Part shown: piece by piece, positions 1,669-47,892 of the stretch
How the letters are laid out: the number at the start of each line of letters is the position of its first letter
How positions within the stretch are numbered: position 1 is the stretch's first letter
Assembly: GCA_022530585.1 (NCBI GenBank)
Contig: CP092821.1
Location: 457,525 to 521,524 of the forward strand
Direction of reading: 5' to 3'
Source of the DNA: Candidatus Nealsonbacteria bacterium DGGOD1a
Lineage (GTDB): Bacteria; Patescibacteriota; Minisyncoccia; Minisyncoccales; UBA5738
DNA length: 64,000 bases
Program-made: the position numbers and the translations under genes
Notes under the pieces: generated by a model
What the model was told of the DNA's origin: nothing
The model's input: only the letters and a program-made list of their open reading frames with translations
Database searches by the model: none

Positions 1669-1677
1669 TGTCTGTGG

Positions 1678-1760
1678 CGGGGAGCGAATTTGTTGAGGTT
1701 TGACCTCAACTTTCGGAGGCCAACTTTTGCCCGCAAGCCGAAGATTGGCCTTCGCATTCG
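1678..1760. repeat. Fragment of the REP/MITE repeat family (REP core plus second hairpin)
   Basis: ggggagcgaatttgttgaggtttgacctcaac matches, in inverse orientation, the right ends of the MITEs at 20161-20200, 24311-24340 and 29779-29814. It is followed by the hairpin ggaggccaa...ttggccttc. Confidence 0.55.
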
Positions 1761-1917
1761 CTTCCGGAGTTAATCCCGGCGAGCGGTTGCTGCCGCAATC
1801 TTGAATTTTTTAGCAAATCGTGCTATAATTTGCGCATTATAATCATTTTGAGTTATTTTGGCGTATTTTGAGTTTTTCTATCAACTCATCAACTCATTTA
1901 CTCATATACTTATTGCT

Positions 1918-4420: not shown

Positions 4421-4547
4421 TTATTGAGTGCAATACCTCGGGGCTTTGCCCCGGGTGCACCAAGAGGATTCCAAAGGGGTGCCCCCTTTGGTCGTCGTGC
4501 GGGGTTCATACCCCGCTCGACGAAATACATTTGGAAAATATATTTTT
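4421..4547. repeat. 127-nt multi-hairpin repeat, copy 1 (candidate MITE or structured RNA)
   Basis: Identical apart from one extra g to 11808-11935. Internal hairpins: cggggctttgccccg, ccaaaggggtgccccctttgg, gcggggttcataccccgc. Confidence 0.7.
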
Positions 4548-4645
4548 GATTTTCGGAAGAACTGGATAATCACAAGTTTGAAATTTGCAAAAAGCGTTAA
4601 GTTGTGTTATATATAACGGGTAATATAAATCTCTATAAATAGACT

Positions 4646-11807: not shown

Positions 11808-11935
11808 TTATTGAGTGCAATACCTCGGGGCTTTGCCCCGGGGTGCACCAAGAGGATTCCAAAGGGGTGCCCCCTTTGGTCGTCGTGCGGGGTTCATACC
11901 CCGCTCGACGAAATACATTTGGAAAATATATTTTT
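11808..11935. repeat. 127-nt multi-hairpin repeat, copy 2
   Basis: Identical apart from one extra g to 4421-4547. Preceded by the hairpin gatggcggggttaataccccggcatc, whose inverse occurs at ~58662-58700. Confidence 0.7.
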
Positions 11936-11980
11936 TATTGTTCGTTGACGGCGGAATCCCAAGGGACCTTTGAAATTCCG

Positions 11981-15884: not shown

Positions 15885-15995
15885 TTTGTTTTGAATTGCG
15901 AAACGCTTTGCATTCGGGGTCTATCCCTTGCGTAATCGCAAGGGATAGACCCCGGCAATGGCATTCGTATTTAATGGTTTCGCGATTCAAGAAAT
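15885..15995. repeat. Hairpin MITE-like element with 'gcgtaatcgc' loop
   Basis: Outer arms gaattgcgaaac/gtttcgcgattc. Core ggggtctatcccttgcgtaatcgcaagggatagacccc (15916-15953). Related cores at 20033-20070, 33979-34014, 34274-34319 and 47856-47892. Confidence 0.65.
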
Positions 15996-20005: not shown

Positions 20006-20200
20006 CAACCCCTCACCGGGGTATTTGTATCTGGGGTCTAACCCCTGTGTAATCGCAGGGGTTAGACCCCTTTAATAGCATTATGAATTTAAATTCGAAT
20101 GCTGTTGCAGGGGTCGCACCCCTGCTTCGCTAAAGCTTCGCAGGGGAACGACCCCAACAAGGTCAAACCTCAACAAATTTGCTCCCCGGTGAGGGGTTAC
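20006..20200. mobile_element. Nested MITE-like element with terminal inverted repeats caacccctcaccgggg / ccccggtgaggggttac
   Basis: Same TIRs as the elements at 24207-24340 and 29641-29814. The interior carries other hairpin repeats (20033-20070 'gcgtaatcgc'-type; 20108-20155 ggggtcgcacccc...ggggaacgacccc) plus a half REP. Confidence 0.6.
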
Positions 20201-20211
20201 ACATTGCAGGG

Positions 20212-24130: not shown

Positions 24131-24206
24131 AATCAATTAAATAACCATTGAATAATATAATTTTAATTATAGAACAGATATTGCCTTCCAACAATAAAGA
24201 CATAAG

Positions 24207-24340
24207 CAACCCCTCACCGGGAAGTAAAAATAGCGAATTTGGAGGTCAATCCTCGGCTTGCGAGAGGTTTGACCTTCAAATTCGCGCCGGCCCTTACCGC
24301 AAATTCGTTAACCTCAACAAATTTGCTCCCCGGTGAGCGA
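24207..24340. mobile_element. MITE-like element, short copy (TIR caacccctcaccggg / ccccggtgagcg)
   Basis: About 100 nt are near-identical to 29644-29745 (agtaaaaatagcgaatttggaggtcaatcctcggcttgcgagaggtttgaccttcaaattcgcgccggcccttaccgcaaattcgtt). Confidence 0.65.
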
Positions 24341-24371
24341 TTGCAGACATAAAGAGCTCGGCAACCGCTTA

Positions 24372-26289: not shown

Positions 26290-26880
26290 TTCACCCTGTC
26301 GGTCTTGCCGCAGGGAACAACTTAAGGGGGTGGTTTGGTAGGGGGATATCCCCCTACCATCACGCGCGAAAGCGCGTCCGTGTTACAATAAGCCAATATG
26401 GAGCAAGAAAAGCGGGATATCTGGCGTTGGTATCACAATGTTTCCGAATGTTATTACCACATCCAGATTACGGTCAAATATCGCAAAGCATTACTGAACG
26501 AAAAGGTGATTGCCGCAATTGTCGAGAGCCTGAAAGGATTTATGGAACGGTACGCCATTGAGATCAGCCATGTGGGATTCGACCAAGACCACGCCCATAT
26601 TCTGGCAAGATTCCTGCCGAAGTATTCCGGCGGCCAGGTTATCAAAATAATAAAAAGCATTACCGCGCGCGAGGTGTTCCGGCAAGTTCCCGAAATTAAA
26701 AAAGAACTCTGGGGTGGAGAGTTCTGGACAGACGGCTATTATATCGCTACGATCAGCGCACGCGGTAATAGGAAAGTTATTGAGCGATACATTCAAAACC
26801 AAGGCAGACCAAAAGACGTGAGCCAGTTACGATTGTTTGAATTGTAGCTGCGAACGCCCTGCGGTCTTGCCGCAGGGTCA
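26290..26880. mobile_element. IS200/IS605-family minimal insertion sequence (tnpA only) with subterminal hairpins
   Basis: Hairpin ccctgtcggtcttgccgcaggg (26295-26316) to the left and ccctgcggtcttgccgcaggg (26857-26877) to the right of tnpA. An extra palindrome ggtagggggatatccccctacc at 26338-26359. Confidence 0.7.
26398..26847 (+). CDS. tnpA: IS200-type Y1 (HUH) transposase TnpA
   Basis: 149 aa. HUH motif DHAHILARF and catalytic-Tyr region FWTDGYYIATISARG..VIERYIQNQ. Typical IS200 size. Confidence 0.85.
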   Translation: MEQEKRDIWRWYHNVSECYYHIQITVKYRKALLNEKVIAAIVESLKGFMERYAIEISHVGFDQDHAHILARFLPKYSGGQVIKIIKSITAREVFRQVPEIKKELWGGEFWTDGYYIATISARGNRKVIERYIQNQGRPKDVSQLRLFEL

Positions 26881-29585: not shown

Positions 29586-29640
29586 TCTTTCACCGGTAAC
29601 ATAATAAAATATAATTATTATGTTGTCAAATTTTCGTCAA

Positions 29641-29814
29641 GTAACCCCTCACCGGGGAGTAAAAATAGCGAATTTGGAGGTCAATCCTCGGCTTGCGAGA
29701 GGTTTGACCTTCAAATTCGCGCCGGCCCTTACCGCAAATTCGTTGAGGATTGACCTCAAAATGCAAATTCTCGAGGTCAAACCTCAACAAATTTGCTCCC
29801 CGGTGAGGGGTTAC
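29641..29814. mobile_element. MITE-like element, full copy (174 bp) with 17-bp perfect TIRs gtaacccctcaccgggg / ccccggtgaggggttac
   Basis: The TIRs are read directly. The interior contains nested hairpins (ggaggtcaatcctcggcttgcgagaggtttgaccttc) and REP-like half sites (gaggtcaaacctcaac). Confidence 0.7.
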
Positions 29815-29891
29815 AATATTGCGGCGGGGTTGTGTTTGGGTTATACTTAAATCGTATTCGAATCGTATTCAAATCGTATTTAATCAAAAAA

Positions 29892-32672: not shown

Positions 32673-33020
32673 ATGGTTATCAAAGCAATAAGAGAAAAAT
32701 TAACGGCCGCGCGCATAAAAGCGGTGGTTATGGAGTTTGGAAAAAAACTGGCGGCGGAGAACATTCCGGTGAAGCAGATGATTTTGTTCGGGTCGTACGC
32801 GAAAAACAATCCGCATATTGACAGCGATATTGATGTGGCGGTGATTTTGAAGGATGACAGCGGCATCGAGCGGGGCGAAATTGACAAGATTACCTGGTGG
32901 GCCAAGCAAATCAATGTGAAATTGGAGCCGCATATTTTGAGCGAAGGCGATTTCAACAACCGTTGGCTGTCGTTGCCCGCGGAAATAAAAAAAACGGGGA
33001 TCAAAATAGCAGAACGATGA
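32673..33020 (+). CDS. Minimal nucleotidyltransferase (MNT/MntA-like, Pol-beta superfamily)
   Basis: 115 aa. LFGSYAKNNPHIDSDIDVAVIL is the GS...DxD NTase signature. Confidence 0.8.
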   Translation: MVIKAIREKLTAARIKAVVMEFGKKLAAENIPVKQMILFGSYAKNNPHIDSDIDVAVILKDDSGIERGEIDKITWWAKQINVKLEPHILSEGDFNNRWLSLPAEIKKTGIKIAER

Positions 33021-33052
33021 CGATGAACGATGACAATGAACGATGACGATAA
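33012..33052. repeat. Short array of gaacgatga-type 9-mers upstream of the four-helix-bundle gene
   Basis: gaacgatgacgatgaacgatgacaatgaacgatgacgataac. The same 9-mer family is seen at 33476-33572. Confidence 0.7.
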
Positions 33053-33092
33053 CTAATAAAAAAAGATAAATAATAAAAATGGACATAAATTC

Positions 33093-33473
33093 ATGGAAAC
33101 AAATAGTAACTATGGGTTTAAATTCAGAAATTGGGATATTTATAACGATGCGCGAAAATTTAGAAATTTAATTTATGAAACAACAAATAAATTCCCAAAA
33201 GATGAAAGATTCGGATTGACAGACCAATTAAGAAGGGCTTCGGTGTCGATAATACTTAATATCGCGGAAGGCGCGAATAAAAACACCGATAAAGACCGCC
33301 GCGTCTATATCAATCGAGCGCATTGTTCATTGGATGAAGTAGTCGCTGGAATAGATTGTGCCGTTGATGAGAGTTTTATTGACGAAACCACCCGGATTAA
33401 AATTTTGGAAAACGCCAGCAGTTTGGCAAAGCGCTTGAGAGCATTCACGAATTATTTGCACCGTGAACCATAA
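33093..33473 (+). CDS. Four-helix-bundle protein (23S rRNA intervening-sequence protein family)
   Basis: 126 aa. FRNWDIYNDARKFRNLIYETTNKFPKDERFGLTDQLRRASVSIILNIAEGANK...YINRAHCSLDEV matches the family pattern (w..a..l...iy.lt..fPk.E.fgL..QlrRaavSi..NIAEG). Confidence 0.8.
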   Translation: METNSNYGFKFRNWDIYNDARKFRNLIYETTNKFPKDERFGLTDQLRRASVSIILNIAEGANKNTDKDRRVYINRAHCSLDEVVAGIDCAVDESFIDETTRIKILENASSLAKRLRAFTNYLHREP

Positions 33474-33475
33474 AC

Positions 33476-33572
33476 AGTGAACGATGACGATGAACGATGA
33501 ACTATGACGATGAACGATGAACTATGACGATGAACGATGACAATGAACGATGAACGATGAACGATGACGATG
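33476..33572. repeat. Array of ~11 degenerate 9-mers (gaacgatga / gaactatga / gacgatga)
   Basis: Read directly. It is the reverse complement of the tcatagttc 9-mers that build the array at 33590-33830, so the two arrays form a large imperfect inverted repeat centred near 33580. Confidence 0.85.
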
Positions 33573-33589
33573 ATTTTGCCCACATTTTG

Positions 33590-33830
33590 TCAAAGTTCAT
33601 AGTCCATAGTTCATAGTCCGCATTCCCTGTCATAGTTCAAAGTTCATAGTTCATAGTTCAAAGTTCATAGTCCGCATTCCCTGTCATAGTTCAAAGTTCA
33701 TAGTTCATAGTTCAAAGTTCATAGTCCGCATTCCCTGTCATAGTTCAAAGTTCATAGTTCATAGTTCAAAGTTCATAGTCCGCATTCCCTGTCATAGTTC
33801 ATAGTTCATAGTTCAAAGATCATAGTCCGT
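33590..33830. repeat. Tandem array: three perfect 54-bp units (33630-33683, 33684-33737, 33738-33791) plus partial flanking units
   Basis: The unit is tcatagttcaaagttcatagttcatagttcaaagttcatagtccgcattccctg. Stop codons occur in all frames and there are no unique spacers. Confidence 0.9.
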
Positions 33831-34437
33831 TGAGTAGAGTGCAGATGGCGTTTCCCGGGAGGAATGCCGCCACCCGCACTTTATAAAAAAGTAGGCGAAA
33901 CGGATTGTCGAAATCACGCCGCCGAAATTTAATGAAGAAGGCGCGAATCCGCATTTTGCATTTGTATCTGCATTTCAAGGGTCTATCCCTTGCGTAATCG
34001 CAAGGGTTAGACCCTGGTAAAAGTATTTGCATTTGCATTTCCCGGATTCGCGAGACAAGGTCGACCGGGACTTATCCGAAATTCCGTGTCCGATATTGCG
34101 AAAGGGTTCTTGTTGAGGTGATCCTCAACAGGCCTGTCGAGGACTGCTGATCAAGCGCCAAGACTCAATATCGGGAACAGGAAAAGTAGGATATTTAACA
34201 AGTTTGACGGGACTTTAAAACCCGCCAAAATAACAATTTCCCCACCTATCAGCATTCAATCACTTTTGTATTTGGGGTCTATCCCCTGCGTAGCTTTAGC
34301 GGAGCAGGGGTTAGACCCCTGCAACAGCGCCCGCATTCGCATTGCATTTGCACCCGCATTTGAGGCCGTTCCCCGGTAGTAGCCGAGGCGCGACCTCGCC
34401 CAACTGCGCTTGCATCGCATTTGCGAGTATATACTTA

Positions 34438-36930: not shown

Positions 36931-36963
36931 ATTAATTGGATATCTGTGTATCCAATAATAAGT

Positions 36964-39312
36964 ATGTCCCAAAAAAAGATAAATCTGTTCTACTGTTTTA
37001 AAAAGGCGGGATATTCGACGCTGGTAATCTTTGCGATTATTTTTCAATTTGCGAATCCAATTATTGTTTTTGCTGAAACTGAGCCGCGGCCAAATCCAAT
37101 TTTCAGTAAAAATTGCGGGTTGGATGTTGTTTTAGTTCTCGATAATTCAACTAGTATTAGTGAAGCCGATATTCAAAAGGAAAAAGCGGCTTTTTTAGGA
37201 TTGATTGATGATTTATCTGGTACGCCTTCGGAATTTAGCGTTCTTAATTTCGGTACGCGCGCACAACCAAAAATTGGATTTGGTGGATCAATTTCTGAAG
37301 TAAAAAATGCAATCAACAACATTCTCTATGACGGTTATGCGGCTACAAATTGGCAAGATGCACTTATTGTTTCTAAAAATTTTTTACCCAACAGAAATAA
37401 TAAAAGTAATTTGATTATTTTTGCTTCAGACGGGAATCCTACAATCAACAACGATGATTTAAGCGTTTTTGATTTACCGATTAACGGCAATGATTGGTCC
37501 TATCTTGATAATAATGATCGGGAAAATGCAATTATTGCGGCGAATGATGTGAAGCAGATTTATAACACGCGGATTGTGACTTTGGGGATTGGCGATGCGG
37601 TTAATGAAGGTAATTTACGCAAGATTTCGGGCAATTTGGCGGGCGATCATTATAATGTTGATAATTTTGACGAATTGAAAACCGCGTTGCACGATTTGGC
37701 GGCGGGGATGTGCGGGGGGACGATTACGGCGACGAAAAAGATCGGGGTGGAGGGGAATTGGGTGCCGGCGGGGGGTTGGTCGTTTAATATCGGGGGGCAG
37801 AGCAAGATCACGGACGCGATTAATGGGCAGACCGAGGCGGTGGAGTTGGTTAATGGTGATGATTACGCGGTGGTCGAAACGCCGCAAGCGGATTATTCTT
37901 TATTTGACGCTTCTTGTTCTATCAGCAATGGCGGCGGCGCGGTGGGGGTGTTTGATTCGGCCAACAACAAAGTAACCGGTATCGCGGTTGACACGCAGGA
38001 TATTATTGCTTGCACATTCTACAACAAAGTTCAATGCCAAAAGATTTTCGGGCCGGAGTCGTGTTTCAAGGAGGGTTGGGCCAAAAAGGATTATTCGTGG
38101 AATTTTCCGCAGTTTTGCGAAGCGGCGGGCGCGGATGAATATGAAAAACATCCGGACTGCGATTGCGTGGAATCTTCAAGCAAGAGTTGCACCGGGCCGC
38201 GGACTTCATTAACTTCCTATACTTACAATTTTTCCTATTGTCCGGCCAAGGATGATCTCGTCAACGATGATGACGCGGAGTGCGATTCCGAGTGGACTTG
38301 CGGCGATTGGACAGATGCCGAGTGCGTTTCCAACGACGGCGGCGGCAAGCGCAAGCAAACGCAATCTTGCACCGATCAATATGGCGGGGCAAAAACCAAC
38401 GAGCGGATTGTCGGCGATTTAACCTGTGGTTGTGCGCAAACCGAAACCGGCCGGAACTGTTTTGCCGACGGAATGGCGCGGGTGGAATATTCTCTCGGCG
38501 GCCAATCCTATTGTTCGGGGACTTTCACCGCGGAGGAATCCGACGCGGCTTGCGCTTGCCGATATTCAACATGGGCCAACAGCGGCTGTGCCGGTGATGG
38601 CAAGATGGGACAGGGACGGAATAATGAAACCACCGCTTTTACCTATTGCGTTGATTTGACCCGACAAATTGACGATGTTTCTTGCGCACAATGCACGGCC
38701 TGGTCGGATTGGGGAACTTGCTCGGCAACCTGCGATGGCGGGATAACGATTCGGACATGCACTGCGGGTGGTTTGGTTGGCAATACGGAATCCGCGGAGT
38801 GCAACACACAATCCTGCGGTGGAAGTCAGATGACCTATCATTGGAGCGACTGGGGAACTTGCTCGGCAACCTGCGGCGGCGGGACGCAAACAAGAACTTG
38901 TTTGGATGAACAAAATAACGCGGTTGACGACAGTTTTTGCTCTGGGGCTGCGACGCAGATATGCAACGCCCAGTCATGCGGTTCGTCCGAAGGGGGATCT
39001 TCGGGCGGCGGGATTAGCGGCGATTACAACAAAAATTATTTCGATAATCCCGTTGGCGGCCAAGTGGCCGGCGCGGCGATCGATTTGGATGAAATCCAGC
39101 GGCAGATCAACGAAATTCGCGATAAGGTGAATGACATTGCCAATCAGATTAACAACTTACCCAAAGGCATCCTGGGCGCCACCGATGTGGCCACCGGCGT
39201 CCTACCGGTAATCGCGGATATGAATGGCATATCGATCGCGGCTTTGCCGGCTCAATCCGAATTTACTCTTCCCGAACCAACCGCCGCGATTTCCCCCAAC
39301 CCCAAACAATAA
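36964..39312 (+). CDS. Giant secreted adhesin D: vWA (MIDAS) domain, Cna-B/SpaA-like domain, Cys-rich region, thrombospondin type-1 repeats, coiled coil, C-terminal LPEPT motif
   Basis: Signal peptide. vWA DVVLVLDNSTSIS...ATNWQDAL...FASDGNPT...IVTLGIGD. Cna-B-like GDDYAVVETPQADYSLFDASC. TSP1 repeats WSDWGTCSATCDGGITIRTC and WSDWGTCSATCGGGTQTRTC. Coiled coil IDLDEIQRQINEIRDKVNDIANQINNL. Confidence 0.75.
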   Translation: MSQKKINLFYCFKKAGYSTLVIFAIIFQFANPIIVFAETEPRPNPIFSKNCGLDVVLVLDNSTSISEADIQKEKAAFLGLIDDLSGTPSEFSVLNFGTRAQPKIGFGGSISEVKNAINNILYDGYAATNWQDALIVSKNFLPNRNNKSNLIIFASDGNPTINNDDLSVFDLPINGNDWSYLDNNDRENAIIAANDVKQIYNTRIVTLGIGDAVNEGNLRKISGNLAGDHYNVDNFDELKTALHDLAAGMCGGTITATKKIGVEGNWVPAGGWSFNIGGQSKITDAINGQTEAVELVNGDDYAVVETPQADYSLFDASCSISNGGGAVGVFDSANNKVTGIAVDTQDIIACTFYNKVQCQKIFGPESCFKEGWAKKDYSWNFPQFCEAAGADEYEKHPDCDCVESSSKSCTGPRTSLTSYTYNFSYCPAKDDLVNDDDAECDSEWTCGDWTDAECVSNDGGGKRKQTQSCTDQYGGAKTNERIVGDLTCGCAQTETGRNCFADGMARVEYSLGGQSYCSGTFTAEESDAACACRYSTWANSGCAGDGKMGQGRNNETTAFTYCVDLTRQIDDVSCAQCTAWSDWGTCSATCDGGITIRTCTAGGLVGNTESAECNTQSCGGSQMTYHWSDWGTCSATCGGGTQTRTCLDEQNNAVDDSFCSGAATQICNAQSCGSSEGGSSGGGISGDYNKNYFDNPVGGQVAGAAIDLDEIQRQINEIRDKVNDIANQINNLPKGILGATDVATGVLPVIADMNGISIAALPAQSEFTLPEPTAAISPNPKQ

Positions 39313-39356
39313 TTCCCAACCCCCAAACCCCCTGTTAAAAACCCCTGTTAAGGAAA

Positions 39357-39437
39357 CCCTGTTGAGGTTTGACCTCAACAGGGGTTTTATATCCCGTTAT
39401 CCCCGTTGAGGTCCCCGTTGAGGTCAAACCTCAACAG
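39357..39437. repeat. REP pair (palindromic ctgttgaggtNNgacctcaacag units) with ~20-nt spacer
   Basis: ccctgttgaggtttgacctcaacagggg ... ccccgttgaggtcaaacctcaacag aagttgatattaaa. The same REP-spacer-REP-'aagttgatattaaa' layout precedes the RAYT gene at 41846-41937 and its fragment at 41124-41220. Confidence 0.8.
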
Positions 39438-39774
39438 AAGTTGATATTAAAGGGTCTGTTGCCGAATTAGCTTCAACTGCAATTTCCATTTTTCGGCTGC
39501 AAAGAATTCATCATTCGTAAATATATACTTAGTATATACTTGCATCGCGTTTAATTTTACCGGGCGCAAGCCCTTTTTTGTTTGGGTGATGCGAATTAAA
39601 ACGCGGTTTGGCGTTTTCCACAGACGGCGGCGCGGCGGAGGGTTGACACGGATTTTCCTTAATGTGAAGGTCAGACCTTCGCAACCTTTATGTATTTTAG
39701 CTGTAGCTAAAAATATCAAATTTGAAAATGCCTATTGCTTTTTTTTGGATCTTTGATAAAAGGAAAATACCTAC

Positions 39775-40040
39775 CAAGAAGGGTAGCAGGATGTTCGGGG
39801 TCGTAGAACTCCTTCAGCGCATGGTTCGAGGGCCGAGTGATCGCCTCACCTGAAACAACAGTAACCATCGCAACGAAGCGCGACCGCGTGGAGTGGAATG
39901 TCGGTGCACACTCAGCGCCACCAGGGACCGATGGATATGTTTATCCGGGTGTTGTTTTATCTGCTTGCTGGCGTAAAAGCGATAAAACCAGCCCCCCACT
40001 TTCATCTTATGGTCTGATGGAACCTAATCCATCAATTTGA
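39775..40040. other. GC-rich non-coding island with multiple potential helices (candidate unclassified ncRNA or decayed gene)
   Basis: Visibly higher GC than its flanks. ORFs on both strands look non-protein-like. Local helices: ggata-tgt-tatcc, tgatgga-acctaa-tccatca, gaaacaaca/tgttgttt, ccatcg/cgatgg. Confidence 0.25.
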
Positions 40041-40076
40041 GCCAAGTGATAATTCGCGCGGCTCCTTTTATTTTCC

Positions 40077-40105
40077 TTGACAAATCTATTTTTTAAAGTT
40101 ATTGT
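40077..40105 (+). promoter_or_regulatory. Putative sigma70-type promoter of the wHTH gene
   Basis: TTGACA (40077-40082), a 17-nt spacer, TATTGT (40100-40105), then a GGAGG RBS 7 nt before ATG 40131. Confidence 0.5.
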
Positions 40106-40130
40106 TTCAGCAGCTCCTTGGAGGCCTGTC

Positions 40131-40448
40131 ATGTTAAGTGTTGACGATATAACATCTTTAGTAGTAGCCATATATTGTTTTAAAGATACGTCGAGAGTCG
40201 TTGTTTTTGAAGCGATTTGTAATGGCGTGGTTGAGCGTAGCGCTATTGATGAAACAACTAAATTACCATACGCTAAAATAAGTCACGCATTATACACGAT
40301 TAGGGCGAACGGATTTATACGACAAAGCGAACACATGGGGAGTTGGGAATTAACGGAATTGGGTAAGAAGATGAAACATATTTTGTTTTACCTAAAAGAT
40401 AGCGAAAATGCTAAAGAAGCGGTAAAAATTTTAAACCGTCATTTTTGA
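40131..40448 (+). CDS. Small winged-helix-type putative transcriptional regulator
   Basis: 105 aa from ATG 40131 (MLSVDDITSLVVAIYCFKD...). ERSAIDETTKLPYAKISHALYTIRANGFIRQSEHMGSWELTELGKKM has an HTH-plus-wing pattern (MarR/PadR-like). The ORF-track start 40077 is the promoter -35. Confidence 0.5.
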   Translation: MLSVDDITSLVVAIYCFKDTSRVVVFEAICNGVVERSAIDETTKLPYAKISHALYTIRANGFIRQSEHMGSWELTELGKKMKHILFYLKDSENAKEAVKILNRHF

Positions 40449-40571
40449 TCCAAAGTTTTTAACTGCGGATTTTTTTATTAGAAATTGGCGCTTTCTTAAC
40501 GCGAAGGTTAGACCTTCGCAATCCCCGCACCGAATACCACTTATTATTACCGCTGTGTTTCGCACGCGTCT

Positions 40572-41060
40572 TTGGCGGTGAGCGTCGATCATAGTTTCAC
40601 GACATCGGCGGCCGGGCAGGTGGCGGGGATTCAAACCGAACGGGACGGCTTTGATGGAGCTTTGGGTATGCCAACCGGAGCAAACACAAGCGGGACGGAT
40701 GCGGATGCGGATGGCAGAATAGAACCGGGCCGGGTTGAAGGCGCGCAAACCGAACGCTCCGATGAAACTTTTGCCGGTGCCGCGGACGAGCCGCGGAACG
40801 GCGGAATTGAATCCGCGGCAAAGGCGGGAATTTGTTGGCCGGATTTTCCTTGGTGGGTGTTTTTGATCCTTGCGGCGATTTGCGGAGCGCGGGCTTGGGC
40901 GAATAAAAAAAGCCGCCGGTTATGGATGGCGGGCGGTATTGTTCCGCTGGCGTTCGCAGGGTGGGCGTATTTTGCCAAACCTTGCGTTGACTGGAAATTG
41001 TTCGCGGCGATGGCGGTTGTTGCGCTGGTTGCCTGGGTTGTCGACCGCAATCGCAAATGA
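40572..41060 (+). CDS. Hypothetical membrane protein (low-complexity N-terminus, three C-terminal TM helices)
   Basis: 162-aa ORF in a GC-rich stretch. C-terminal WWVFLILAAICGA, GGIVPLAFAGWAYF, FAAMAVVALVAWVV. Overlapping antisense ORFs make the coding status uncertain. Confidence 0.3.
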   Translation: MAVSVDHSFTTSAAGQVAGIQTERDGFDGALGMPTGANTSGTDADADGRIEPGRVEGAQTERSDETFAGAADEPRNGGIESAAKAGICWPDFPWWVFLILAAICGARAWANKKSRRLWMAGGIVPLAFAGWAYFAKPCVDWKLFAAMAVVALVAWVVDRNRK

Positions 41061-41123
41061 CCAATTTCGAGCTTCGTTAAAAGAAATATGCCATTGCGCT
41101 TGGGCGAGTGGAGAATGGGCGGC

Positions 41124-41197
41124 GCCTGTTGAGGTCAAACCTCAACAGGCTTTTTGTATCCCGTTATCCCCGTCCTGTTGAGGTTTGACCTCAACAG
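41124..41197. repeat. REP pair preceding the truncated RAYT copy
   Basis: gcctgttgaggtcaaacctcaacaggc (41124-41150) and cctgttgaggtttgacctcaacag (41174-41197). Confidence 0.85.
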
Positions 41198-41220
41198 AAG
41201 TTGATATTAAAATTAAACAT

Positions 41221-41358
41221 ATGAGAAAAGAACCGTTTTTTGTTGGCGATTATGTTCATGTTTTTAATCGCGGCAACCGCAAAATGGATATTGTGCGCGA
41301 CAATATCGATTTACTTGGTGGCGAGTTGCAAAAAAAAGAAAAATGGCGCATATTGTAA
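41221..41358 (+). pseudogene. N-terminal fragment of the RAYT transposase (first 30 codons duplicated, then unrelated tail)
   Basis: 41174-41309 is identical to 41891-42026 except for one base. It encodes MRKEPFFVGDYVHVFNRGNRKMDIVRDNID, then diverges and stops at 41356-41358. Confidence 0.75.
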
Positions 41359-41373
41359 TTGCGAGCGAAAATT

Positions 41374-41685
41374 ATGGAAACCATAACTTTATCCAAAGAA
41401 AAATATTATGAATTGGTGGAAAAAGCCGCACTTTACGATCGTTTTCGGCAACAATACGGAAACGAAGTTTTTGCGTGTCCGCCGGTGAAAGATGCCGATA
41501 GGGTTATGGAATCGTTTGCTAAAACCGGACTTTACAGCAAGAATTTTTTGGAAAGTTTTAAAAAAGGGTTAGGGCGATCTTCTTATTTTAAACATGAGAA
41601 TCCTGCCTCTTCATCCCGAACTACGAGATTATCTGAAAAAAAGAAATCTTGTGGAAAAATTCGCCAAACAAAAACGGATTTTTGA
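41374..41685 (+). CDS. Putative antitoxin of the adjacent RelE/ParE-type toxin
   Basis: METITLSKEKYYELVEKAALYDRFRQQ... Position immediately upstream of the toxin. The unusually long 92-nt overlap with the toxin ORF suggests the 3' end may be mis-set or frameshifted. Confidence 0.4.
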   Translation: METITLSKEKYYELVEKAALYDRFRQQYGNEVFACPPVKDADRVMESFAKTGLYSKNFLESFKKGLGRSSYFKHENPASSSRTTRLSEKKKSCGKIRQTKTDF

Positions 41686-41842
41686 GCAAAATCCGTTTCA
41701 CCCGGGTCTTAATACCGAATTGTTGTCACCCAAAAGACTGCGGTTCTGGAGTTTTAGGATTGATCGAAAATATCGCGTCATTTTTATTTTTCGCGGTCGC
41801 GCCATAGTTGAGATCATCGATATTAACGACCATTATCAATGA
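41594..41842 (+). CDS. RelE/ParE-superfamily type II toxin
   Basis: 82 aa. KKRNLVEKFAKQKRIFEQNPFHPGLNTELLSPKRLRFWSFRIDRKYRVIFIFRGRAIVEIIDINDH follows the RelE/ParE pattern (..nP.hP.L....l.....ws.Ri...yRiif......i.i..i..H). Confidence 0.65.
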   Translation: MRILPLHPELRDYLKKRNLVEKFAKQKRIFEQNPFHPGLNTELLSPKRLRFWSFRIDRKYRVIFIFRGRAIVEIIDINDHYQ

Positions 41843-41845
41843 GAA

Positions 41846-41914
41846 CCCTGTTGAGGTCAAACCTCAACAGGGTTTTTGTTTCCCCGTATTCCTGTTGAGG
41901 TTTGACCTCAACAG
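41846..41914. repeat. REP pair immediately upstream of the RAYT gene
   Basis: ccctgttgaggtcaaacctcaacaggg (41846-41873) and cctgttgaggtttgacctcaacag (41891-41914). Confidence 0.85.
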
Positions 41915-41937
41915 AAGTTGATATTAAAATTAAACAT

Positions 41938-42672
41938 ATGAGAAAAGAACCGTTTTTTGTTGGCGATTATGTTCATGTTTTTAATCGCGGCAACCGCAAA
42001 ATGGATATTGTGCGCGATAATATCGACCGTTGGCGTTTCCTTTCGATTTTAAGATATTTCAATGACCAGCGGCCGTCTCTGAATATTTTGCGCGAACTCC
42101 TCAATACGCGCCTGTTGAGGTTTGACCTCAACAGCGCCGAAAAGAGCTATTGTTTTGATTGGCCGAAAAATTGGCCGCCGCAAAAACCTCTCGTGAGGAT
42201 TGTTTCATATGCTTTAATGCCGAATCATTATCATTTGCTTCTGCAAGAAATTGATGACGGCGGTATTTCCGTATTTATGAAAAAACTCGGCAATGGATTT
42301 ACCGGATATGTCAATATCAAATACGATGAGGTGGGTAAAATTTTTCAAGGGTCATACAAAGCGAAAACCGTGAAAAACGAGAATTATTTGCAGTATCTGG
42401 ATGCTTATATCCAAGTTTTGAATCCGTTTGAGCTTTTGTCGCCGGAATTCGTAATCAAGTCGCCGCGAAAAGCGTTTTTGGAAGTTGCCGCCAACCCGTT
42501 TTCCAGCTTGGGAGAGTCTCTTGGATTGAATAATTTGCAAATCGTGGACAGAAAATCAATTGAGCGAGAAATCGGCCTGACGAGCGACCGCGAAAAATAT
42601 CTGAAATTGATCAATGATATTATGGCCGCCGGCGGTTTAAAAAAAATCCTCGGCGAGTTGCTCTTCGATTGA
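41938..42672 (+). CDS. REP-associated tyrosine transposase (RAYT; IS200/Y1-like HUH enzyme)
   Basis: 244 aa from ATG 41938. HUH motif YALMPNHYHLLLQE and C-terminal Tyr region NENYLQYLDAYIQVLNP. Flanked on both sides by its cognate REPs and carrying one internally (42111-42134). Confidence 0.8.
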   Translation: MRKEPFFVGDYVHVFNRGNRKMDIVRDNIDRWRFLSILRYFNDQRPSLNILRELLNTRLLRFDLNSAEKSYCFDWPKNWPPQKPLVRIVSYALMPNHYHLLLQEIDDGGISVFMKKLGNGFTGYVNIKYDEVGKIFQGSYKAKTVKNENYLQYLDAYIQVLNPFELLSPEFVIKSPRKAFLEVAANPFSSLGESLGLNNLQIVDRKSIEREIGLTSDREKYLKLINDIMAAGGLKKILGELLFD

Positions 42673-42673
42673 T

Positions 42674-42696
42674 CTGTTGAGGTCAAACCTCAACAG
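42674..42696. repeat. REP unit directly after the RAYT stop codon
   Basis: ctgttgaggtcaaacctcaacag. Confidence 0.85.
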
Positions 42697-42742
42697 GCAT
42701 TTTGTTTGACCTGAAGGCGGTTTTTGTATAGGATGACATAAT

Positions 42743-43558
42743 ATGAAACCGGCAGGGAAGTCGATTAAAAGCTTATTTTTCGGGAAAAACGGCAATACAA
42801 TGATCGCGTTTTTGGGTTTGCTTTCTATCGCGTTGATTTTGGCCGCAATCTCGTTCGGGTCGCGGGCCGATTGGAGCGATTTCAAAAAATTTATGCCGCG
42901 GCCGAGCGATTTGGCAACTTCGCCGTTGGCGCGGGATTTGCCGCGGGAAAATAAAAATCCGGAGGAACCGGCGGAATCGGCCGAAAACCGGCCGGCGGCG
43001 GATGAAGCGGATAAAGCGAATGTATCGGAAACAATCGGCCCGGAAGCCGCGGTCGCGGTTGAGACCGAACCGGAATTGAAGCCGGTGGTTGAAGCGCCGA
43101 CGGTTCCGGCGACCGCGCCGGACGCGGCAAGAGCCGATATGGTGATCATTCCAAAGATCGGCGTGAACGCACCGGTAATCACGCCGCGGACGAAAGACGC
43201 GGCTCAATTGAAAAAACTTCTTGATTCCGGCGCGGTGATCTATCCGGATTCGCCAGTTTTCGGCGCCGCCGGGCAAACGATCGTATTGGGACACAGCGCG
43301 CCGCCGAACTGGCCGAAAATCAAACACGACACGATTTTTTCCCGCATCGCGGAATTGTCCGCGGGCGATAAGATTATCGTGGTCTACAATGACCGGACCT
43401 ATAATTACTCGGTATCGCAAGGCCAGATCATAGAAAAGGGCGGCGCTATCCCCGCGATGGTCTCCGACGGCAATTCTTTGGCTCTGGTAACTTGCTGGCC
43501 GCCCGGCCGCGACCTCAAACGAATGGTGGTGCAAGCCCAACTTGCCTCGGTGGAGTGA
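42743..43558 (+). CDS. Sortase-family transpeptidase (membrane-anchored)
   Basis: 271 aa. N-terminal TM (MIAFLGLLSIALILAAISF) and a Pro/Glu/Ala linker. Catalytic His (TIVLGHSAPP), Cys (LALVTCWPPG) and Arg (LKRMVVQAQL) occur in the canonical order and spacing. Confidence 0.8.
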   Translation: MKPAGKSIKSLFFGKNGNTMIAFLGLLSIALILAAISFGSRADWSDFKKFMPRPSDLATSPLARDLPRENKNPEEPAESAENRPAADEADKANVSETIGPEAAVAVETEPELKPVVEAPTVPATAPDAARADMVIIPKIGVNAPVITPRTKDAAQLKKLLDSGAVIYPDSPVFGAAGQTIVLGHSAPPNWPKIKHDTIFSRIAELSAGDKIIVVYNDRTYNYSVSQGQIIEKGGAIPAMVSDGNSLALVTCWPPGRDLKRMVVQAQLASVE

Positions 43559-43613: not shown

Positions 43614-44102
43614 ATGGCAAACAATAATATCCAAAATAATCAAAATATCAGCAATAAAGAATTGCTCGATTTTTTGATAAAAAAGTTTGACGGCATCGAT
43701 CAAAAGTTTGTCGCAATCGATCACAAGTTTGACGCAATCGATCAAAAGTTTCTTGGCATCGATAAAAGGTTTGACGCAATCGATCAAAAGTTTGTCGCAA
43801 TCGATCAAAAGTTTCTTGGCATCGATAAACAATTTGATGTTTTTAAAAATGAATATGTCGCGGATTATAAGGGTTTGGCGGATTTAATGATGAATCAATT
43901 TGAAAAGTTTTACGAAAAGCTTGACCAGAAAGCCGATAAATCGGATATTGACGCAGTTTTGACGCGGATCACGCAATTAAGCGACAAGGTTGACGATTAT
44001 CGCGCCGATCAGATTGGTTTGAAGCGCCAAGTTGACAAACACGAAAAATGGCATCGCCAAACCGCAACCAAAATCGGATTGAAATTAATTCCCGAAGCGT
44101 AA
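43614..44102 (+). CDS. Small coiled-coil protein, paralog of 29892..30275 (conserved C-terminal DDYRADQIGLKRQVDKHEKWH)
   Basis: 162 aa. Seven 7-aa repeats (IDQKFVA/IDHKFDA/IDQKFLG/IDKRFDA...). The C-terminal block is near-identical at DNA level to 30166-30230. Confidence 0.6.
   Translation: MANNNIQNNQNISNKELLDFLIKKFDGIDQKFVAIDHKFDAIDQKFLGIDKRFDAIDQKFVAIDQKFLGIDKQFDVFKNEYVADYKGLADLMMNQFEKFYEKLDQKADKSDIDAVLTRITQLSDKVDDYRADQIGLKRQVDKHEKWHRQTATKIGLKLIPEA
43683..43839. repeat. 21-bp tandem repeat (~7.5 units) inside the coiled-coil gene
   Basis: The unit is atcgatcaaaagtttgtcgca. A 63-bp higher-order periodicity is visible. Confidence 0.85.
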
Positions 44103-44529: not shown

Positions 44530-47500
44530 GCTAGCCAAGGTAAGTAAAATTATAGGCACATGGTGGATGCCTTGGGACTGGGAGGCGATGAAGGACGCAG
44601 CCTGTCTGCGATAATCCCGGGGGAGGTGACAAGCAACCTTTGAACCCGGGGTCTCCGAATGGGGAAACCCTTTCCGGCGTTGAACCGGAAAATCCCATAG
44701 CGCAAGCTAGGGAAGCGAACCTGCGGAAGGGAAACATCTCAGTACGCAGAGGAAAAGAAAAAAATCCTCGCTTCGGCGAGGGACATTCTCTTAGTAGCGG
44801 CGAGCGAAAAGAGAAGAGCTCAAACCAGTTTGTATTTCGCTTATGTTCATCAAAATTGGTGGATATAAGTGAAATACAGGCTGGGGTTATAAGGTAAGGA
44901 TAATCCCGAGCGTAAGCGAGGGACAAAGCGCATCAATATGCAATTTGGTTAACCCAACTACCCTGGAAAGGGAGGCCATAGCGGGTAATAGCCCCGTAAG
45001 TGAAAATCATTGCAAGCTTTGAATCTTTATTCTTGAGTACCGCGGGAAACGAAAGTCCTGCGGGAATTCGGCTGGACTATACAGCCAAAGCTAAATACTA
45101 CCCAGTCACCGATAGTGCACAAGTACCGTGAGGGAAAGGTTAAAAGTAGGGGGGTGACCCCGGTGAAATAGATCCTGAAACCATGATGCTTACAAAGACT
45201 CGGAGTGCTGAGGCGCAAGCCGAAGTATGACGGGGTGCTTTTTGTAGAACGAGCCAACGAGTTTAATTTATCAGTTAGTCTAAGCGTCTCTGACGCGAAG
45301 GCATAGGGAAACCAAGTCTTAATAGGGCGCAATCCCGAGCGTAAGCGAGGGAGTACTGATGGGTTAAGACCCGAAGCCAAGGCGAGCTTGCCATGACCAG
45401 GTTGAATCCCGCCGAAAGGCGGGAGGAGGACCGAACCGGTTGACTGTGCAAAATCTTCGGATGAGTCGTGGTAAGAAGTGAAAAGCTAATCGAGCTTGGT
45501 AATAGCTGGTTCTCTCCGATATAACTTTAGGGTTAGCGTCCTGCGCTAATGGTTTTGGAGGTAGAGCACTGAAAGAAATTCCGTGGCGAAAGTCAGGTAT
45601 TTCTATCAAACTCCGAATGCCGGAACCATTGCAGGGCAGTAAGACTACGGGCGCTAAGGTCCGTGGTCGTAAGGGGGAAAGCCCATGACCTCAGTCTAAG
45701 GTCCCCAAATCAGGCTAAGTGCAAAACAAGGAAGTGAGATTCCTCTGATAGCTAGGAGGTTAGCTCAGAAGCAGCTATCCTTTAAAAAGTGCGTAACAGC
45801 TTACTAGCTAAGGAGTTTTGCGCCGTAGATTAACGGGGCTCAAGCCTGATACCGAAGACGAGGGTGTCCCGCATTTTTGCGGGGCGCGGTAGGAGAGCGT
45901 TCCCATTGCAGTGAAGCGGAACCGTGAGGTTTCGTGGAGCGTTGGGAAGTGAGAATGTTGGCATGAGTAACCACAATGCATGTGAGATCCATGCACACCG
46001 AAAACCCAAGGGTTCCGTGACAATGGTGATCAGTCACGGGTTAGGCGGTCCTAAGGCACAGCCGAGAGGCGCAGCTGATGGACATCTGGTTAATATTCCA
46101 GTCCTTCCGTTTCTTGCTGAGAAAGTGACGAAGTTTAGTACTCTGGGCGGGTTATTGGATTCCCGTTGCCAATTTGATTGTTCCGGGCGCAAGCTCGGGA
46201 TGAAAGAATTGTCGAGATGTTTCCCGCAAGGGAGATAGATTCAGACGAGCAAGCTTCCCAGAAAAACCTTTCAAGGGCTATCAAGAAAGGGAAACCGTAC
46301 CGTAAACCGACACAGGTGGGTTGGCGTCAAATTGCCAAGGTGAACGAGTGAAAGTTCGTGAAGGAACTAGGCAAACAAGTATGCGTACCTTAGGTATATG
46401 CATTCCCTTCATAGCAATATGGAGGGCGCAGCGAAGGATTCTCAGGCGGCTGTTTACCAAAAACACAGGTCCCTGCTAAACTCGTAAGAGGAAATATAGG
46501 GGCTGAGACCTGACCAGTGCCCGTGTGTTAAAGCTGAGGGTGGATTTGATCGCAAGATTGGATTTGCTCATCGGTCTAAGCTACGGGTGAACGTCCGCGG
46601 TAACTCTGACCGTGTTAAAGTAGCGTAGTCCCTTGTCGCGTAAGTTGCGACCCGCATGAAAGGTATAACGATCTGAGAACTGTCTCCACGAATTACTCGG
46701 TGAAAATGTAATGGAAGTGAAGATACTTCCTACCTGCGACTAGACGGAAAGACCCCGGAAGCTTTACTGTAGGGTGATATTGAGTTTTGAATTTTGATGC
46801 GTAGAATAGTGGTGAGGATTTGAGGTCTCGTTTTCGGACGGGGCTGATCCGACAGTGAAATAGCCATCTTTAAAGTTCATTATTCTAATTTGAAAAATGA
46901 CAGTGTCACTTGGGCAGTTTAAGTGGGGCGCTTGCCTCCTAAAATGTAACGGAGGCGTTTAAAGGTCAGCTAAGCACGGATGGAAATCGTGCATGTTGCG
47001 TAAAGGCATAAGCTGGCTTAACTGCAAGACGGATGTGTCGCGCAGATGCGAAAGCAGAACTTAGTGAACCGATGCTGGTTATTAGAATCGGCAGAGATTA
47101 TCAAACAAAAGTTACTCCGGGGATAACAGGCTAGTACGACCCACGAGTCCATATCAACGGTCGTGTTCGGCACCTCGATGTCGGCTCATCATAGCGCGGG
47201 GGTGGAGAAGCTCCCAAGCGTCCGGCTGTTCGCCGGTTAAAATGGTACGTGAGCTGGGTTCAGACCGTCGCGAGACAGGTCGGTCCCTATCTATCGCAGG
47301 CGTTTGAGTTTTGAGGAGAGTCGACCCTAGTACGAGAGGACCGGGTTGAACTGACCTCTGGTGTGCCAGTTGTTCCGCCAGGAGCATTGCTGGGTAGCTA
47401 AGTCGGGAACGGATAAGAGCTGAAAGCATCTAAGCTCGAAGCCTCCTCCAAGATTATAACTCTTAGTTTCCTCCAAGAACAGGAGGTTGATAGGCTGCAG

Positions 47501-47566
47501 GTGTAAGCGCGGCAACGCGTTCAGCCAAGCAGTACTAATAAACGATCAAAATTGCCTTGGTTAGCA
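44530..47566 (+). rRNA. rrl: 23S ribosomal RNA (~3.04 kb; boundaries +/-10 nt)
   Basis: 5' ggtggatgccttgggactgggaggcgatgaaggacg. GTPase centre. PTC region ggataacaggct...ggcacctcgatgtcggctcatc...gagctgggttcagaccgtcg. The ends pair (taattgctagccaagg with ccttggttagcaatta). Confidence 0.95.
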
Positions 47567-47651
47567 ATTAATGACCTTAATTTAATTGCAAAAAGATTGG
47601 AATTGGAATAAAATAACTAACACAACAAAACAATACGCGATTGCGCGCATT

Positions 47652-47760
47652 GTAAGGAAGCTATACCGATGGTGCTCCACCTGTTCCCATGCCGACCACA
47701 GAAGTGAAATCCATCAGGGCCGATGATAGTCCGATCGGGCGAAAGTAGGTAGCTTTCTTA
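47652..47760 (+). rRNA. rrf: 5S ribosomal RNA
   Basis: ccacctgttcccatgccgaccacagaagtgaaat...ccgatgatagt...gaaagtaggt matches the 5S core. Helix I taaggaagct/agctttctta is extended by gcgcgcattg/caatgcgcgc as a processing stem. Confidence 0.85.
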
Positions 47761-47855
47761 CAATGCGCGCAATTTTTTGTTACAAATATGTATTTTTTGC
47801 TATCGCAAAATTTGCATAATCATGATATTTTAAATTGCGAAATGCTTTGTATTTT

Positions 47856-47892
47856 GGGTCTATCTCTTGCGTAATCGCAAGGGTTAGACCCC
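47856..47892. repeat. Hairpin with 'gcgtaatcgc' loop (family of 15916-15953)
   Basis: gggtctatctcttgcgtaatcgcaagggttagacccc, within outer arms aaattgcgaaatgctttg / gtttcgtaatccaaag. Confidence 0.65.

Follow-up and report, generated by a model that had tools for sequence, protein, structure and literature searches.

A probable REPtron in Candidatus Nealsonbacteria points to a distinct RAYT-like clade in Patescibacteria

We analysed a window of 64,000 nucleotides (nt) from the genome of Candidatus Nealsonbacteria bacterium DGGOD1a (GCA_022530585.1, contig CP092821.1, positions 457,525-521,524 of the forward strand), in which a gene encoding a Y1/HUH protein lies among copies of a short perfect palindrome. 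This locus is quite probably a REPtron, i.e., the gene of a single-stranded DNA (ssDNA) nuclease of the REP-associated tyrosine transposase (RAYT) type accompanied by its cognate repetitive extragenic palindromes (REPs). Our results support the REP/RAYT interpretation proposed in the initial annotation of this sequence, and the relatives of the gene point to a large, distinct, and previously undescribed RAYT-like clade of Patescibacteria. Work on REPs and RAYTs has concerned almost entirely Proteobacteria, with some Cyanobacteria and Bacteroidetes, and our full-text literature searches found no paper linking RAYTs, REPs, or REP doublets forming hairpins (REPINs) to Patescibacteria.

The REP of this locus has 23 nt and consists of CTGTTGAGGT, a loop that reads TTG or CAA, and ACCTCAACAG, which makes it a perfect palindrome of the form 10-3-10. 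A pattern with a 4-nt loop had no match in the window; the actual loop has 3 nt. When searched with up to three mismatches, the pattern CTGTTGAGGTNNNACCTCAACAG occurs nine times in the window, against 0.00 times in 100 dinucleotide-preserving shuffles. Eight of these matches are clustered (39359-42696), with starts at 39359, 39415 (one mismatch), 41126, 41175, 41848, 41892, 42112, and 42674, and the ninth is a degenerate copy at 1690. The cluster is made of three inverted doublets, one intragenic REP, and one REP placed directly past the stop codon of the RAYT-like gene. The loop sets the orientation of each copy, and the members of a doublet are inverted because their loops are complementary. 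Each doublet folds, as ssDNA, into a single hairpin of about 24 base pairs (bp) with a free energy of -27 to -28 kcal/mol and z-scores of -8 to -10, which is the geometry of a REPIN. The three doublets and the single unit of the initial annotation were all found where it had placed them, and the leader that it reported behind each doublet is indeed common to the three (AAGTTGATATTAAA), two of them being followed by the longer ATTAAACAT-ATG. The intragenic REP had escaped it, as had the 137-nt direct repeat and the toxin-antitoxin pair described below.

The individual copies differ in their surroundings. REP A1 (39357-39383, loop TTG) lies 45 nt past the stop codon of a 788-aa open reading frame (ORF) with von Willebrand A (VWA) and thrombospondin type-1 (TSP1) domains, and looks like a terminator, its stem being extended to 12 bp by flanking CCC/GGG and followed by GTTTTATAT. 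Its partner A2 (39415-39437, loop CAA) has CCG in place of CTG and is preceded by a 12-nt stutter, CCCCGTTGAGGT; behind it, the RAYT leader AAGTTGATATTAAA persists on the forward strand with no gene following (39438-39451), and may be the relic of an older gene copy. In the second doublet, B1 (41124-41150, loop CAA) comes after an ORF of 162 aa and is also terminator-like, with a 12-bp stem followed by TTTTTGT; it pairs with B2 (41175-41197, loop TTG) as a 24-bp REPIN-like hairpin. The third doublet begins 4 nt past the stop codon of the toxin ORF with C1 (41846-41872, loop CAA; 14-bp stem and a run of T) and ends with C2 (41892-41914, loop TTG), the proximal upstream REP, whose loop is centred 35 nt ahead of the ATG of the RAYT-like gene. 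The intragenic REP (42112-42134, loop TTG) is in frame and encodes the peptide LLRFDLNS at codons 59-66. Finally, REP D (42674-42696, loop CAA) begins 1 nt past the stop codon of the gene and is followed by GCATTTTGTTT.

Traces of the repeat are also present elsewhere. The core 8-mer GTTGAGGT occurs 25 times in the window (0.74 expected), including eight times outside the cluster, and its sites at 1692/1703, 20167, 24311, 29781, and 34112 correspond to the degenerate and half copies that the initial annotation had listed. They belong to a degenerate dispersed REP (1690-1712, TTGTTGAGGTTTGACCTCAACTT), a REP half or variant (20160-20182, AGGTCAAACCTCAACAAATTT), a remnant of the 3' arm (24311-24322, ACCTCAACAAAT), a degenerate doublet (29739-29796, CGTTGAGGATTGACCTCAAAA ... 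GAGGTCAAACCTCAACAAATTT), and a further degenerate REP (34109-34132, GTTGAGGTGATCCTCAACAGG). The doublet at 29739-29796 is part of a longer composite repeat, the element at 20160-20182 lies in a member of the same repeat family, and the remnant at 24311 lies in a copy that lacks 35 nt relative to the one at 29745-29780.

The gene itself (41938-42672, forward strand) encodes a protein of 244 aa with the sequences MPNHYHLLLQE and YLDAYIQVLNP, and these contain the RAYT-like motifs previously noticed (NHYHLLLQ and YLDAYIQVLNP). H97 and H99 form the HuH motif and the catalytic tyrosine, Y157, lies within YIQVLNP; these three residues and N162 are invariant in all of the 120 homologs on which this check and the structural model are based. 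Pfam Y1_Tnp (PF01797) matches the protein with 31.9 bits (cut-off 23), the match being restricted to the half that runs from HuH to Tyr. The AlphaFold model (mean predicted local distance difference test, pLDDT, of 89.9) has its best Foldseek match in the PDB with 4ER8, the E. coli RAYT in complex with a REP hairpin (E 4.8e-6, TM-score 0.63), and the next matches are TnpA of IS608 and ISDra2 (E 5e-4 to 1e-3). The protein is not an ordinary IS200 TnpA: its best fold match is the RAYT, and its Pfam score is far from the 106.9 bits that the IS200 TnpA of the same window (26398-26847) reaches on the same model. The latter, which the initial annotation regarded as an unrelated neighbour, is also invisible to the profile of the RAYT-like family, which finds in the 64-kb window only the intact gene and a fragment of 30 codons. 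A direct comparison of the family profile with this IS200 TnpA was uninformative (probability 1%). The IS200-type TnpA is encoded on the forward strand, has 149 aa, and matches Pfam Y1_Tnp over its full length (E 9.6e-31). Residues 163-244 of the RAYT-like protein form a helical C-terminal domain in the model, for which the PDB offers no sequence match and no fold match (E above 7), and 26 members of the family have no Pfam domain besides Y1_Tnp. We considered a DnaA-C-like helix-turn-helix (HTH), as in RAYT subclass 2.1, for this domain; it is unsupported, with no Pfam or fold match.

The association between gene and palindrome extends over the family. A protein search returned 388 relatives, nearly all from metagenome-assembled genomes (MAGs) of Patescibacteria or from metagenomes, which are 45-58% identical to the query, except for one neighbour at 94%; an exhaustive profile search gave 507 clusters (50% identity) at E <= 1e-30. 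We listed the perfect palindromes (stem of 8 bp or longer, 3-nt loop) in 80 metagenomic loci. Both flanks extend for 150 nt or more in 67 genes, and in 56 of these a palindrome of this kind lies no farther than 200 nt away, against a background expectation of 0.05 per 200 nt. A palindrome is found on each side of 31 genes, and the two cores agree in 29 of these; in the window, too, one palindrome flanks the gene on both sides (41848/41892 ahead of it and 42674 behind it). The loop of the nearest copy upstream is most often centred 28-36 nt ahead of the ATG; on the other side, the nearest copy generally begins no more than some 30 nt past the stop codon.

A third copy is found within the gene in 35 of 87 homologous genes of other Patescibacteria. 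It is always centred 167-218 nt from the ATG, and is of the gene's own flank type in 28 of the 28 cases that have a flank palindrome. It falls in a linker that leads from strand beta1 (HVYNRGNRK) to the strand of the HuH motif and is variable in the protein alignment, with peptides such as LLRSNLNS, LLRFDLNS, and VEVK/RPQQ. All of these are one DNA palindrome read in differing frames or loop orientations, which implies that the constraint acts on the DNA and not on the protein. In the AlphaFold model, the intragenic REP of the window maps to a low-confidence surface coil in this interval.

The palindromes vary together with the proteins. The loci contain 58 distinct types of palindrome arms, related proteins carry related palindromes in a neighbour-joining tree, and paralogs sharing a contig differ from each other in palindrome type (L073, L079/L085, L028). 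This co-variation across the 87 homologous genes bears out the earlier claim that the RAYT is paired with its own REP. The consensus of the family is TGTNGANGT-NNN-ACNTCNACA, with GTTG, GTAG, or GTCG at the foot of the stem: positions -8 to -5 read GTTG in 9, GTAG in 8, GTCG in 5, and GTGG in 1 of the 58 types, and this foot is paired with its complement (a 'double foot'). The REP of our locus has GTTG, and the feet found in the family recall the GT[AG]G guide of described REPs and the double-foot REPs of subclass 2.4 (PMC6006769). On sequence grounds, the gene-palindrome architecture of the family is the REPtron signature that has been described for RAYTs (PMC6006769, PMC3733652, PMC5581495).

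The REP is also found away from the gene. A scan for the exact palindrome with one genome per species identified it in 19 loci of about ten Patescibacteria MAGs, and only three of these loci contain a gene of the family. With relaxed matching, five 8-kb loci of RA.bin35 contain at least 16 copies, including five CAA...TTG doublets. These loci contain one RAYT gene, and all copies are intergenic except for one inside that gene. LiPW_41 has the palindrome in four loci. Solo copies frequently form part of longer palindromes that are peculiar to their locus. Furthermore, the identical 23-mer is present in frame in housekeeping genes, encoding VEVKPQQ, VEVRPQQ, or LLRSNLN: at the same site of the tRNA-guanine transglycosylase gene (TGT) of two MAGs (L004 880-902 and L012 4860-4882), in alanine racemase (Alr; L017 567-589), in TsaD (L011 6643-6665), and in DprA (L006 1372-1394). 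The two TGT genes are identical at 23 of 23 positions of the REP, compared with 63% identity at third codon positions overall. REPs inside genes, and inside the tnpA-REP genes of subclass 2.4, were already known (PMC6006769, PMC3733652). For annotation, recurrent LLRSNLN, LLRFDLN, and VEVKPQQ inserts in proteins of Patescibacteria should be read as REP insertions.

A 137-nt direct repeat (41173-41309 and 41890-42026, 99% identity) spans a REP and the leader and runs through codon 30 of the RAYT. Its upstream copy contains the start of a truncated RAYT gene (41221-41358, forward strand), which encodes the same first 30 residues as the full gene and then continues with ...LGGEL...; the underlying 10-mer, GGCGAGTTGC, is found again at the 3' end of the intact gene, suggesting that the fragment is an internally deleted second copy. 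Hence the gene, of which there is one intact copy in 64 kb, is not strictly single-copy, because two decayed copies of its 5' end lie upstream. Between the two copies of the repeat, and inside a block bounded by REPs, lies a candidate toxin-antitoxin pair, both ORFs being on the forward strand. The candidate antitoxin (41374-41685, 103 aa) has no family match; it lies upstream of, and overlaps, a toxin ORF (41594-41842, 82 aa) resembling RelE/YoeB/HigB, all of whose matches are under the curated cut-offs (HigB-like 22.9 bits against 27, YoeB 18.9 against 27, ParE 17.8 against 23, and TIGR02116 27.3 against 51.8).

The block as a whole (41125-42695) aligns with contig L009 of the MAG UBA5738 at 93.9% nt identity, with both limits of the alignment falling precisely on the outer REPs. 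For residues that are the same in both genomes, third codon positions agree at 86% in the RAYT, 98% in the candidate antitoxin, and 100% in the toxin, compared with 62% in the adjacent sortase gene, and the first 345 nt of the 23S gene are 85.9% identical. The left flanks of the cassette are unrelated, and in both genomes it precedes the same sortase gene. With an identity so far above that of the sortase and 23S genes, the block is much younger than its surroundings, and this points to a REP-bounded cassette that was exchanged or replaced horizontally. The protein that is 94% identical to the query (P0001) is found on five contigs, all arranged as in L009, and these do not represent independent insertion sites.

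These observations raise the alternative that the locus is an autonomous insertion sequence resembling IS200/IS605, in which REP-gene-REP and its cargo move as a whole and the palindromes are the subterminal hairpins of the left and right ends. An insertion sequence would account for a block that ends exactly at REPs and is 94-100% identical between genomes whose sortase genes (62%) and 23S starts (86%) are much more divergent, for its unrelated left flanks, for the two decayed 5' copies of the unit upstream, and for the presence of two family members on several contigs. Yet we consider this explanation unlikely for several reasons. The 64-kb window has one intact copy only, and paralogs on the same contig are 31-47% identical to the query, are not near-identical to each other, and have their own palindromes. 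Solo REPs and doublets without a gene occur in RA.bin35, LiPW_41, and others, as well as in housekeeping genes. Both ends of the unit are one perfect palindrome in either loop orientation, instead of distinct left and right structures. The motifs of the protein, NHYH and a Tyr motif ending in NP, differ from the DH[VI]H and Y---Q of IS200 TnpA (PMC6006769), and its fold is nearest to a RAYT. Lastly, the cassette stands before the same sortase gene in both genomes.

Two other stretches of L009 deserve mention. A non-coding element of 139 nt is 97% identical between the window (39518-39656) and L009 (7149-7287) and is found at different positions, i.e., behind REP doublet A in the former and in the interval between the sortase and 23S genes in the latter. 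It includes AGTATATACTTAGTATATACT as well as a GC hairpin that has a T-run, ends in GGAGGGTTGACA, and has no Rfam match. In UBA5738, moreover, REP D and the conserved sortase promoter are separated by some 450 additional nt (L009 5862-6359). This stretch opens with TTGACA-17-TACAAT, continues with GC-rich hairpins, and has no Rfam match at E <= 0.1; given its promoter-like start and its hairpins, it may encode a small RNA.

The position of the REPs suggests that they might also affect transcription. In a TTG-oriented REP, the loop and the 3' arm read TTGACC, and promoter-like sequences TTGACC-17-TAAAAT are found on the forward strand at 41185-41213, where the putative -35 box is the loop and 3' arm of REP B2, and at 41902-41930. 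Both are 10/12 matches to a sigma-70-type promoter, and the second, with only 7 nt from the end of its -10 box to the ATG, predicts a leaderless mRNA. A third such sequence on the same strand, TTGACC-17-TAGGAT (42706-42734), lies ahead of the sortase gene, and its GTTTGACCTGAAGG resembles a decayed half of a REP. In the family, TTGAY-N16-18-TAnnnT occurs upstream of 28 of the 79 genes scanned, usually with the -10 box ending 6-7 nt before the ATG, and in 16 of the 79 the -35 box is inside a perfect palindrome. A scan for terminators flagged the REPs at 39357, 41124, and 42673; REP C1 (41846) has a T-run behind it by direct reading, yet it was left unflagged.

One could then suppose that the palindromes are ordinary cis-regulatory DNA, such as an operator, a -35 box, and terminators, that they are not mobilised, and that the Y1 protein is unrelated to them. 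The TTGACC at the -35 position of the proximal REP, the recurrence of this geometry in the family, and the three or four REPs of the window that have T-runs just past stop codons speak for such a role. We regard it nevertheless as a very improbable explanation of the locus. It has no need for a third identical copy within the coding sequence, which is nonetheless found in 35 of 87 genes and in differing frames, nor for doublets and solo copies next to unrelated genes and in frame in TGT, Alr, TsaD, and DprA. REP types with the loops TAA, CGG, or CTA do not provide TTGAC, and T-runs follow only 10 of the 54 downstream copies. Moreover, the protein has an intact set of HUH and Tyr catalytic residues and matches a RAYT structure bound to its hairpin.

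Under the REPtron interpretation, and by analogy with E. coli TnpA-REP, IS608, and ISDra2, a dimer of the protein would bind the REP hairpin in ssDNA, e.g., at the replication fork, recognise the foot of the stem (GTTG here, GTNG family-wide), and cut and rejoin the DNA via a 5'-phosphotyrosine on Y157. Such cycles of cutting and rejoining could copy, move, and homogenise REPs and doublets, including into permissive in-frame sites of genes. The apex and 3' arm of the proximal REP (TTGACC) might serve as the -35 box of a leaderless RAYT promoter, in which case the occupancy or the extrusion of the REP could feed back on the expression of the RAYT. REPs with T-runs may terminate the genes upstream, and a CAA...TTG doublet would then act as a terminator-promoter module. 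The block 41125-42695, with the truncated copy, the toxin-antitoxin pair, and the intact gene, could behave as an exchangeable cassette.

A number of observations weigh against this interpretation, or against parts of it. First, the sequence similarity to Y1 enzymes of solved structure is marginal: a profile search of the PDB with 26 homologs yields only ISDra2 TnpA at E 0.4, and comparison of folds was needed to see the relationship. The protein reaches 23 bits on NCBIfam NF047646, the REP_Tyr_transpos equivalog, for which the cut-off is 80, and its Tyr motif, Y157-I-Q-V-L-N162-P, is Y-x4-NP, with one residue more than the Y-x3-NP of class 2. A second point is dispersal. The initial annotation described copies scattered through the window, which holds for the degenerate ones; every perfect REP is confined to 3.4 kb, with only about six degenerate copies outside. 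Copy numbers are low wherever they are visible, and only 13 of 57 loci have a copy with the same core at a distance of over 1 kb from the gene. The spacers of the RA.bin35 doublets are mutually unrelated, unlike those of classical REPINs that move as units, and we found no support there for a REPIN moving as a unit. Third, truncated gene copies and a horizontally shared cassette resemble an insertion sequence more than a vertically inherited single-copy RAYT. Fourth, the putative promoter and leaderless start are consensus matches only. A T-run lies behind no more than 10 of the 54 downstream REPs of the family, and a role as terminator would therefore be local and not general; we rejected it as a family-wide feature. 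Finally, REP-specific cleavage and rejoining of ssDNA is proposed for this clade by analogy.

If the REPtron interpretation is correct, it extends a known genome-shaping repeat system to Patescibacteria, the candidate phyla radiation, whose genomes are ultra-small and gene-poor. The clade would provide clean material for two open questions, the function of RAYTs and the homogeneity of REPs, as its palindromes are perfect and three positions per gene evolve in concert, of which one is coding and one doubles as a -35 box. We also venture, as a doubtful proposition, that the REP of Patescibacteria is a portable module maintained by the RAYT. It would provide a -35 box when oriented one way and a terminator stem whichever way it faces, would be kept identical inside coding sequences (the RAYT linker, TGT, Alr, TsaD, and DprA), and would delimit cargo cassettes exchanged between genera, with the RAYT regulating itself through the REPs in its own promoter and gene.

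The window contains other repeats. The composite repeat family (130-200 nt) has copies at 1560-1830 (reverse strand), 20006-20201, 24204-24345, and 29639-29815, each with an ORF downstream; over a stretch of 106 nt, the copies at 24204 and 29639 share 98% identity. An inverted repeat, AACCCCTCACCGGGG / CCCCGGTGAGGGGTT, lies on the outside of the element and encloses REP-like hairpins, AAATTTGTTGAGGT...ACCTCAACAAATTT and GCGAATTTGGAGGTCAA...TTGACCTTCAAATTCGC; the family could be a miniature inverted-repeat transposable element or a structured leader. Further families of perfect palindromes have an apex in the style of GGT-NNN-ACC (GCGAAGGTTAGACCTTCGC, AAAAGGGTCSGACCCTTTT, GGGGTCTATCCCTTGCGTAATCGCAAGGGATAGACCCC, CCAAAGGGGTGCCCCCTTTGG), with copies at 39663-39683 and 40501-40519; at 30284, 58221, and 58246; at 15889-15953, 20006-20070, 33951-34015, and 47828-47892; and at 4471 and 11859. 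They resemble REP types that flank genes of the RAYT-like family in other metagenomic loci, and may be orphans or belong to RAYT paralogs encoded elsewhere in the genome. The palindrome CCAAAGGGGTGCCCCCTTTGG is contained in a 112-nt direct repeat (4440-4551 and 11828-11939, 95% identity), the copies of which are 7.4 kb apart. Tandem-repeat tracts occupy 32991-33573 and 33590-33859, with 13/20-nt units of the TGAACGATGACGA type and an array with a period of 54 nt whose copies are up to 97% identical.

Among the neighbouring genes, the 788-aa ORF ahead of doublet A (36946-39312, forward strand) encodes a secreted-looking protein with a VWA domain and a thrombospondin type-1 repeat (Pfam TSP_1, E 3e-9), a domain that is unusual in a bacterium; internal repeats of 141 nt encode its CSATCGGG motifs. 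Some 380 nt (39700-40076), between the palindrome at 39663 and an ORF of 105/123 aa, have no convincing ORF and no Rfam, tRNA, or transfer-messenger RNA (tmRNA) match. At a relaxed threshold, Rfam gave for 39000-43200 only matches far below threshold (miRNA-precursor models on the REP hairpins and a 13.7-bit alpha_tmRNA), which we take as spurious, and ARAGORN found no tRNA or tmRNA. Between the sortase and 23S genes, another ORF of 162 aa (43614-44102, forward strand) consists mostly of seven 21-nt (7-aa) tandem repeats resembling FDAIDQK, and is absent from the same position in L009. A distance of 1.8 kb separates the RAYT cassette from the 23S gene downstream; the 23S and 5S genes are at 44539-47761, and the absence of a 16S gene from the 64-kb window indicates that the rRNA operon is unlinked.

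How does this locus compare with known systems? The closest counterpart is the REPtron of E. coli with its TnpA-REP (subclass 2.2 of Quentin et al. 2018; 4ER8). Both have a Y1 HUH fold, this being the best structural match, and in both the cognate palindromes are on the two flanks of the gene, inverted doublets can form one long hairpin, GTNG can stand at the foot of the stem, protein and REP co-vary, and the gene appears to have a low copy number. The protein is larger here (244 aa, against about 165 aa), with an additional, unmatched helical domain at the C-terminus and a linker of 67-87 aa between beta1 and HuH; it has Y-x4-NP instead of Y-x3-NP and FQ instead of WE, and the NCBIfam model of RAYTs failed to recognise it. 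Its REPs are perfect palindromes with a 3-nt loop, no bulge, and a paired foot tetranucleotide, and they apparently number tens at most, as opposed to the hundreds of E. coli, in a host of the phylum Patescibacteria. IS200 TnpA (subclass 1.1) has in common with our protein the Pfam Y1_Tnp superfamily and the association with DNA hairpins. It differs in its motif variants, in the lack of a C-terminal domain, and in ends that are not dispersed solo palindromes, and a protein with NHYH and YIQVLNP, 244 aa long and with a single intact copy in the window, falls outside IS200/IS605 TnpA, for which DH[VI]H, Y-x3-Q, nothing beyond a core of some 150 aa, and many near-identical copies would be expected.

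Two other subclasses each share a part of these traits. Subclass 2.1, or TIRYT (Bertels group 1), has a median of 238 aa, NH[YF]H, an FQ variant, a Tyr motif of the Y..LNP type, and a C-terminal extension (PMC6006769), all of which recall the protein studied here. Its members have been reported without REPs and flanked by terminal inverted repeats with GGGGWSAS (PMC6006769, PMC3733652), whereas REPs flank our gene, and neither Pfam nor fold comparison detects in the C-terminal domain a Bac_DnaA_C or an HTH such as HTH_23 or HTH_28, which places the protein outside this subclass. In-frame REPs inside tnpA-REP have been described for a single RAYT group, subclass 2.4 (Bertels group 4; Cyanobacteria and Bacteroidetes), and its REPs are 'double-foot', with 5' GT[AG]G and 3' C[TC]AC (PMC6006769); an in-frame REP inside the RAYT's own gene and double-foot REPs are what we find in Patescibacteria. 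In subclass 2.4, the insertions are between HuH and Tyr, the motifs are NH[IFV]H, WQ, and YIxNNP, and the median length is 194 aa, whereas here there is one fixed site between beta1 and HuH, i.e., upstream of HuH, with NH[YF]H, FQ, and YIQVLNP in about 240 aa, and our protein is therefore not a member of that group either. Judged by its sequence, the RAYT-like protein belongs neither to the curated RAYT equivalog nor to any subclass of Quentin et al. 2018, and the clade combines the length and motifs of subclass 2.1 with the in-gene, double-foot REPs of subclass 2.4, placed at another site.

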